A stretch of 14,774 nt of DNA, taken from IMG/VR virus record IMGVR_UViG_2698536395_000026; one strand, given 5' to 3'. The position numbers and the translations under genes are program-made. The DNA is from a virus (lineage: Duplodnaviria > Heunggongvirae > Uroviricota > Caudoviricetes). This document shows positions 14,351 to 14,745 of the stretch, piece after piece (position 1 is the first letter of the stretch; every line of letters begins with the position of its first letter). The notes beneath the pieces were generated by a model. The model searched no databases and had not been told where the DNA came from. It worked only from the letters and a program-made list of their open reading frames with translations.

Positions 14351-14554
14351 TTATTCGATTTTTGCGCCGGGGCATAATTTGTTGAATTCGTCTTGTTTCG
14401 CATCAGCACCGCCACCACGTACTTCCGGCTCTGGCTTGATGGCTTTCTTTGGTTTTGGAGCAAGGCTTACCTGTTTGCTAATCTGCCCCAAGAGGAATGC
14501 TGCGCGAATTGGATCTGTCTCAGCGGCTACACGCTGGCGTAATTGCTGGCTCTT
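14351..14554 (-). pseudogene. Scaffolding protein gene, 3' fragment truncated by IS insertion
   Basis: Hand translation of the minus strand from 14554 gives an open frame of 67 codons (KSQQLRQRVAAETDPIRAAFLLGQISKQVSLAPKPKKAIKPEPEVRGGGADAKQDEFNKLCPGAKIE) ending in TAA at 14351-14353, just upstream of the coat RBS. It has no start codon in the window and abuts the IS end at 14555. Identity as scaffold is by synteny. Confidence 0.55.
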
Positions 14555-14745
14555 TGAGGTAGCCTGAGTTTAACGGACACGTTTTCCTGAAATAGAATGG
14601 CATCAGAAGGAGCTAATAATGAGCAGAAAAACCAAACGTTACTCTAAAGAGTTCAAAGCCGAAGCTGTCAGAACGGTTCTTGAAAATCAACTTTCGATCA
14701 GTGAAGGCGCTTCCCGATTATCCCTTCCTGAAGGCACTTTAGGAC
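14555..14745 (+). mobile_element. IS3-family insertion sequence (IS600-like), left end, partial
   Basis: Starts with TGAGGTAGCCTGAGTTTAACGGACAC (IS3-family ends begin with TG). An AAGGAG RBS precedes an ORF beginning MSRKTKRYSKEFKAEAVRTVLENQLSISEGASRLSLPEGTLG, which matches the OrfA N-terminus of IS600 as I recall it. The element runs off the biological end of the contig. Confidence 0.8.
14619..14745 (+). CDS. IS3-family transposase OrfA (helix-turn-helix N-terminus), 3'-truncated at contig end
   Basis: ATG at 14619 with AAGGAG 5 nt upstream; 42 codons of OrfA-like sequence before the reading frame runs into adapter-derived sequence. Confidence 0.75.

Follow-up and report, generated by a model that had tools for sequence, protein, structure and literature searches.

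IS600 is amplified in STEC, including O26:H11 strains, and a 3-nt target sequence has been mentioned for this element (PMC9397093). In an O121:H19 lineage of STEC, lacZ was inactivated by a copy of IS600, which is excised there by IEE (PMC9397093). Within O26:H11, the Stx1a prophage of strain B44 has IS600 upstream of q, and in strain P07 an IS has mediated the loss of 18 kb from the late region (PMC10042803). In phage P22, lack of scaffolding protein prevents proper coat assembly and the incorporation of the portal (PMC12005531). We analyzed a stretch of 14,774 nt, referred to in its whole length as the window, which ends shortly after a switch from a P22-type scaffolding gene into IS600. At a probability of roughly 87%, the window records a genuine IS600 element that interrupts the scaffolding gene in a P22/Sf6-like prophage at argW of an O26:H11-type E. 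coli.

The underlying process, a routine case of prophage decay caused by an IS that the EHEC-type genome already carries, is known. The locus resembles the O121:H19 lacZ case (PMC9397093) in the element itself, in the STEC background carrying SpLE1-like elements, in the lineage-inherited inactivation, and in a transposase that lies antisense to the operon. However, the target here is a structural gene of a prophage. The B44 and P07 prophages (PMC10042803) are similar in that they represent IS-driven prophage inactivation or decay within O26:H11, but the phage there is a lambda-like Stx phage, in contrast to the P22/Sf6-like prophage at argW, and the target differs.

The window corresponds to the last 14,774 nt of NCBI contig LODD01000112.1 (GCA_001609855.1, 143,143 nt), and its end is therefore the true end of the contig. 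The contig was traced through the 52-residue frame that leaves the window at its end, for which an exact look-up gave RefSeq protein WP_074014269.1. Its first base is the start of the intS ATG (intS, window 1-1158; contig position 128,370), which is an excision cut and not a contig end. Positions 1-14554 were 100.0% identical over the whole span to E. coli O26:H11 11368 and other complete genomes, in all of which the scaffold gene is intact. In 11368, this region makes up one half, from int to scaffold, of a P22/Sf6-like prophage located beside tRNA-Arg and yfdC (argW), and that prophage looks complete. The gene order in the intact reference is portal, scaffold, and coat, as in the late operon of P22-like phages. 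The features of the prophage portion of the window that are relevant here are as follows.

1403-2545, minus strand: gene for an acyltransferase-family protein, an accessory gene between int and the tail genes.
4861-5127, plus strand: gene for an Arc/Mnt-family repressor (Pfam Arc and Repressor_Mnt), likewise an accessory gene of this region.
5198-5683, plus strand: third accessory gene of this region, for a 161-aa protein that carries a lipoprotein-type signal (MKKSLLIIPLLLVGC) and matched no Pfam family.
13068-14339, minus strand: P22-type major coat gene, 423 aa, intact (ORF list; identical gene annotated by RefSeq in O26:H11 11368).
14351-14554, minus strand: surviving 3' end of the scaffolding gene, from codon 228 through codon 294 and the TAA stop (translation, alignment, and PHROG match).

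Across complete E. coli genome records, the coat-side module (window 1-14554) matched 2,696, while the module containing the portal and the scaffold N terminus (L003:26555-27754) matched only 235. This difference places a mosaic boundary, at which P22-like prophage types meet, in the vicinity of the scaffold gene.

The minus strand of 14351-14554 translates to 67 codons followed by TAA (KSQQLRQRV...PGAKIE*). The stop codon occupies 14351-14353, 11 nt upstream of the start codon of the coat gene, which follows directly downstream in the late operon. In O26 prophages, where the scaffolding protein has 294 aa, residues 228-294 are an exact (100%, base for base) match to the remnant. The first-pass annotation had claimed that the last 67 codons of a putative scaffold gene remain, and for this contig that claim is borne out by an exact match over all 67 codons. 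The same annotation had asked whether the 67-codon frame would match any scaffold protein. It does, as the O26 protein is joined by PHROG 648, 'head scaffolding protein', which the remnant alone matched with an E value of 5.8e-23. The 67 residues by themselves gave no Pfam match. The full-length 294-aa homologue matched Pfam PF09306 at 36.1 bits (cut-off, 25 bits) and PHROG 648 at E=4.8e-105, and the coat protein of the source contig matched Pfam PF11651, P22_CoatProtein. The disrupted gene is thereby comparable to P22 gene 8, for which loss-of-function mutants exist: it encodes a homologue of gp8 (PF09306; solved P22 scaffolding protein 8i1v_H, E=4e-8), and the break separates the N-terminal two thirds from the C-terminal coat-binding region. 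However, the scaffolding protein of this prophage is only distantly related to gp8 (36 bits), and the phenotype here would be carried over from P22 by analogy. The remnant contains no in-frame ATG. When the sequence was read directly, the sole candidate start was a TTG at 14491 (46 aa), which has no Shine-Dalgarno sequence upstream, and look-ups of the 46-aa TTG-started product found it absent from protein records.

Identity to the intact scaffold gene ends exactly after 14554. The sequence from 14555 onward starts with TGAGGTAGCCTGAGTTTAACGGACAC, and the first base of IS600 (TGAGG...) is position 14555 itself. The following features lie beyond this point.

14555-14745, plus strand: left end of IS600, IS3 family (nucleotide match, orfA domain, and termini of other copies).
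About 14555-14581, plus strand: imperfect terminal inverted repeat of IS600, part of the left end.
From ATG at 14619, plus strand: first 42 codons of orfA, with an AGGAG ribosome-binding site (ORF and profile search).
14581-14583 and 14634, plus strand: four substitutions private to this contig, GTT for TCC and A for C, the latter giving Q6K in OrfA (collection comparisons).
14746-14774, no strand assigned: Nextera transposase adapter, reverse complement of TCGTCGGCAGCGTCAGATGTGTATAAGAGACAG, 27/29 (alignment).

Over 191 nt, the left end of IS600 was matched with an identity of 97.9% (E=8e-88), so that the earlier claim of an IS3-family, IS600-like element at the junction holds, down to the exact terminal base. 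The 42 OrfA residues encoded from 14619 matched the Pfam domain HTH_Tnp_1 (PF01527) at 42.2 bits, above the cut-off of 24.1 bits. The gene is on the plus strand and points away from the coat gene (13068-14339, minus strand), again in agreement with what had been proposed, namely that the element reads away from that gene. Compared to IS600 (ISfinder name; IS3 family, 1,264 bp) in its RefSeq annotation for E. coli and Shigella, the window shares the TGAGG terminus, the ribosome-binding site, and the orfA N terminus with HTH_Tnp_1. However, it contains the first 191 nt only, and the contig stops short of the frameshift site, orfB, and the right end. In the reference copy L002, an independent IS600 extending from TGAGG to CCTCA over 1,264 bp, CCG flanks the element on each side, and orfA/orfB, with the -1 frameshift and the DDE (rve) catalytic domain of OrfB, is present and annotated with 'programmed frameshift'.

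The position of the terminus was further examined with other copies of the element. Across IS600 copies taken from IMG/VR, the bases preceding TGAGG are unconserved from position -1. Identical 3-nt flanks were present in 28 of 71 distinct full copies, compared to about 1 expected by chance. The divergence of the flanks from -1, together with these 3-nt duplications, indicates that 14555 is the true terminus of IS600. Microhomology joining the target and the IS end was considered and rejected, as none was visible between the scaffold target and the IS600 end in the alignment.

Contig ends at the same site were examined by exact look-ups of the C-terminal partial scaffold products that annotators would call at contig ends. 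The results for four products were as follows.

66-aa partial, ending 2-3 nt short of 14554: 129 blocks, 110 of them with contigs of 50-200 kb (e.g., 141,194 and 142,890 nt).
65-aa partial, ending 4-6 nt short of 14554: 31 blocks, 16 of them with contigs of 50-200 kb.
67-aa partial, ending at the junction or 1-2 nt past it, where the extra bases match the intact allele: 14 contigs, of which 2 measure 50-200 kb.
60-aa partial, for a control codon away from the site: 17 contigs, of which 4 measure 50-200 kb.

At least 126 index blocks with long contigs (those shown were about 141-143 kb) stop 2-6 nt before the junction, compared to 4 for the control codon. The contig of the window itself measures 142,923 nt up to the junction, near the other long contigs. 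The portal-side DNA flanking the site is single-copy in complete O26 genomes, and an intact allele therefore gives an assembler no reason to break there. For the same reason, we rejected the idea that contigs recurrently end here because of a repeat boundary other than an IS. Most simply, these data would mean that a repeat occupies the scaffold site in a sizeable lineage. We infer from position and length that this repeat is IS600 in the other assemblies as well, whose contigs hold no IS bases. The junction looks real and lineage-wide, and the concern that it might be a chimeric assembly, raised in the first-pass annotation, is largely removed by the at least 126 long-contig blocks ending 2-6 nt short of it beside a single-copy flank. 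As an exact string, the left junction had 0 matches in genome_contigs, viral_contigs, and metagenome_contigs, and BLAST found it in 0 of 5,426 complete E. coli genomes. In O26 chromosomes, 11 to 14 places matched the query, one of them being the prophage itself, which leaves about 10-13 copies of IS600. Such a number of copies would block short-read assembly and accounts for the contig stopping at the junction.

A second, independent IS600 insertion in the scaffold gene was observed in other isolates, after codon 73 (...GACGATA/TGAGGTAGCC...) and in the opposite orientation. It was seen at L149:3221-3294 (GCA_002766815.1, BEQA01000230.1) and at L150:3221-3248 (Logan DRR103452), with the Logan contigs extending about 30 nt into IS600. 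The element at this site has the canonical TCC. Its fused product of 75 aa, in which MR are the last residues before the stop, was present on 4 contigs, and 6 coat-side contigs break near the site. A recurrent break near codons 67-79 was also noted in L127:1-686 (GCA_039866455.1) and in 5 similar contigs of about 145 kb, as well as in the products P0038 and P0039. The coat-side partials start at codon 68 and the portal-side partials end at codon 79, giving an overlap of about 36 nt around the second IS600 site, which may reflect a mixture of intact and inserted alleles.

We additionally examined what lies on the far side of the element in the window. If the insertion were simple, the expected 3-bp target-site duplication would be the following predicted feature.

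14552-14554, no strand assigned: CTT, the target bases adjoining the IS end.

A simple insertion with duplication of CTT would place the string ...CCAGTACACCTCACTTACCTAAGCCATAGG in the isolate. The other junction would read ...CCAGTACACCTCA/CTT/ACCTAAGCCATAGG, or, with the IS end written first, ...CACCTCA/CTT/ACCTAAGCC. Such an insertion would yield a product of scaffold residues 1-228, after which translation would run straight into the TGA at the end of the IS. This predicted 228-aa product was absent from about 15 billion proteins in both its A124 and T124 variants, and the predicted right junction had 0 matches in viral_contigs. The products expected from duplications of 1, 2, 4, or 5 bp were likewise absent, with the exception of a 227-aa string that is a contig-end partial. 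This string occurs on one contig (L128, GCA_052459765.1), which is within the background of random contig ends. The contig ends with ...GGCTTAGGTAA (...GGTAA), 1 nt short of the predicted duplication. Two further candidates for the predicted product, P0038 and P0045 (227 and 228 aa), were rejected because they are C-terminal partials from a different break point.

The absence of the predicted insertion product, together with the at least 126 long coat-side blocks compared to 0-1 portal-side contigs, puts an IS-bounded deletion or rearrangement roughly on a par with a simple insertion. With a chance a little short of even, the IS600 copy may mark the end of a deletion or rearrangement that removed the 227 promoter-proximal codons of the scaffold gene and possibly the portal gene, the terminase, and more, leaving a prophage remnant. 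This refines the main reading and leaves the left junction unchanged, with recombination between IS copies or an IEE-mediated deletion after insertion as the possible route. Fused products of the predicted kind do get captured, as shown by the 75-aa product at the second IS600 site (4 contigs, against 6 coat-side contigs). In addition, there is published evidence both for IEE-promoted deletion of IS flanks and for IS-mediated deletion within prophages of O26 (PMC9397093, PMC10042803). However, this is an argument from absence, and an N-terminal SNP, pseudogene calls without a protein, or different clipping could hide the product; moreover, the contig in GCA_052459765.1 does reach to 1 nt before the predicted duplication. 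In either case, insertion or deletion, the scaffold gene is destroyed.

The quality of the sequence beyond the junction was considered separately. The last 29 nt of the window (14746-14774) are non-biological read-through, and the IS-derived sequence stops at 14745. RefSeq WP_074014269.1 ('transposase, partial', 52 aa) is partly an artefact, since the adapter encodes its last ten residues (PVAYTHLTLP). P0017, which shares a cluster with this adapter-tailed protein as its second member, was rejected as an unrelated, frameshifted IS600 OrfA. The 220-nt tip contains 6 differences, 4 in the IS sequence and 2 in the adapter, compared to 0 in the preceding 14,554 nt; by our own arithmetic, six randomly placed differences would all fall in the tip with a chance of about 1e-11. 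The tip looks like the product of one or very few error-rich reads running into adapter. The four substitutions in the IS sequence are most likely read or assembly errors, and the error-laden bases after the junction should not count as a novel IS variant.

It is unlikely that the four differences are instead real and represent a diverged IS600 isoform with OrfA Q6K and an altered inner edge of the left inverted repeat, an explanation that concerns the IS sequence alone and is compatible with all other readings. The differences are indeed present in the deposited contig, and K6 also appears in RefSeq WP_074014269.1. However, the variant was found in none of the collections scanned. Among the 6,014 matching places in ecoli_genomes and the 1,671 in plasmids, not one record had a full-length match that improved on one with all four differences, and position 14634 is C in all 127 IMG/VR copies of IS600. 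The 29-mer with the variant GTT had 0 exact matches in the viral, genome, and metagenome scans, in which the canonical 29-mer, used as a positive control, gave at least 120. Full-length OrfA with K6 is absent from the protein collection, whereas the Q6 form is present on at least 1,000 contigs. The adjoining synthetic adapter likewise carries 2 errors in 29 nt.

The presence of two independent IS600 insertions in one small gene, one of which appears to have been kept in a large lineage, is mildly unusual. The idea that disabling of the scaffold gene was selected and not accidental, as a reversible lock in an iee-positive STEC background, is about as unlikely as the diverged isoform. If it were true, the conversion and immunity genes would be kept while virions are blocked, and rare IEE-mediated excision would restore productive phage.

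It is quite improbable that the insertion, although real, is subclonal and confined to a minority of the culture, with the strain overall keeping a working scaffold gene. In such a culture, IS600 would transpose and IEE would excise it, and the intact allele at the site would read ...GGCTCTTACCTAAGCC. This would agree with the very thin read support for the IS tip, with the documented IEE-driven heterogeneity of IS600 insertions within cultures (PMC9397093), and with the few contigs elsewhere that stop at the site with 1-2 bases of the intact allele. However, the 143-kb contig takes the IS branch and not the intact gene, and the break shared by many related assemblies points to inheritance more than to a private minority event. 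Least probable of all is a junction artefact, in which a chimeric read or a misassembly fused the intact prophage to an unrelated IS600 copy: the error-rich tip would fit it, the junction was found in no other sequence searched, and from the spacing of the differences (27, 51, and 112 nt) one error-bearing read could probably chain unique k-mers at a k of about 127, but the break falls on the first base of a 1,264-bp element (about 1 in 2,500 for a random chimera, by our own arithmetic), target and IS end have no homology, the contig should continue into the portal gene if the intact allele were at full depth, and at least 126 long-contig blocks terminate at the same spot.

Under the main reading, a genuine IS600 element in the scaffolding gene, the left end of the element joins the target after codon 227/228 of 294, with the transposase antisense to the late operon. 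The coat-proximal 67 codons would lose their start codon and the promoter-proximal part of the gene, and any N-terminal fragment would be made without the C-terminal coat-binding hook (helix-turn-helix) region. The part missing from such a fragment aligns to the P22 scaffold from about residue 220 to the C terminus, a region that in P22 contains both the helix for dimerisation (231-245) and the hook by which the C terminus binds coat (PMC12005531). Since a fragment would lack the coat-binding region and the remnant has no start codon, no functional scaffolding protein is expected. As in P22, the shells then built from coat protein would be aberrant or T=4 and have no portal, and no infectious particles would be produced. 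By this analogy we infer, on good grounds, that procapsid assembly and particle production are lost. The genes outside the late operon that have their own promoters (acyltransferase, Arc/Mnt, and lipoprotein) should be unaffected.

The contig also provides a clean example of untrimmed adapter and single-read tips entering public assemblies. For a set of O26-type isolates, the junction may serve as a lineage marker, and the argW prophage carrying it is predicted not to be transmissible as particles.
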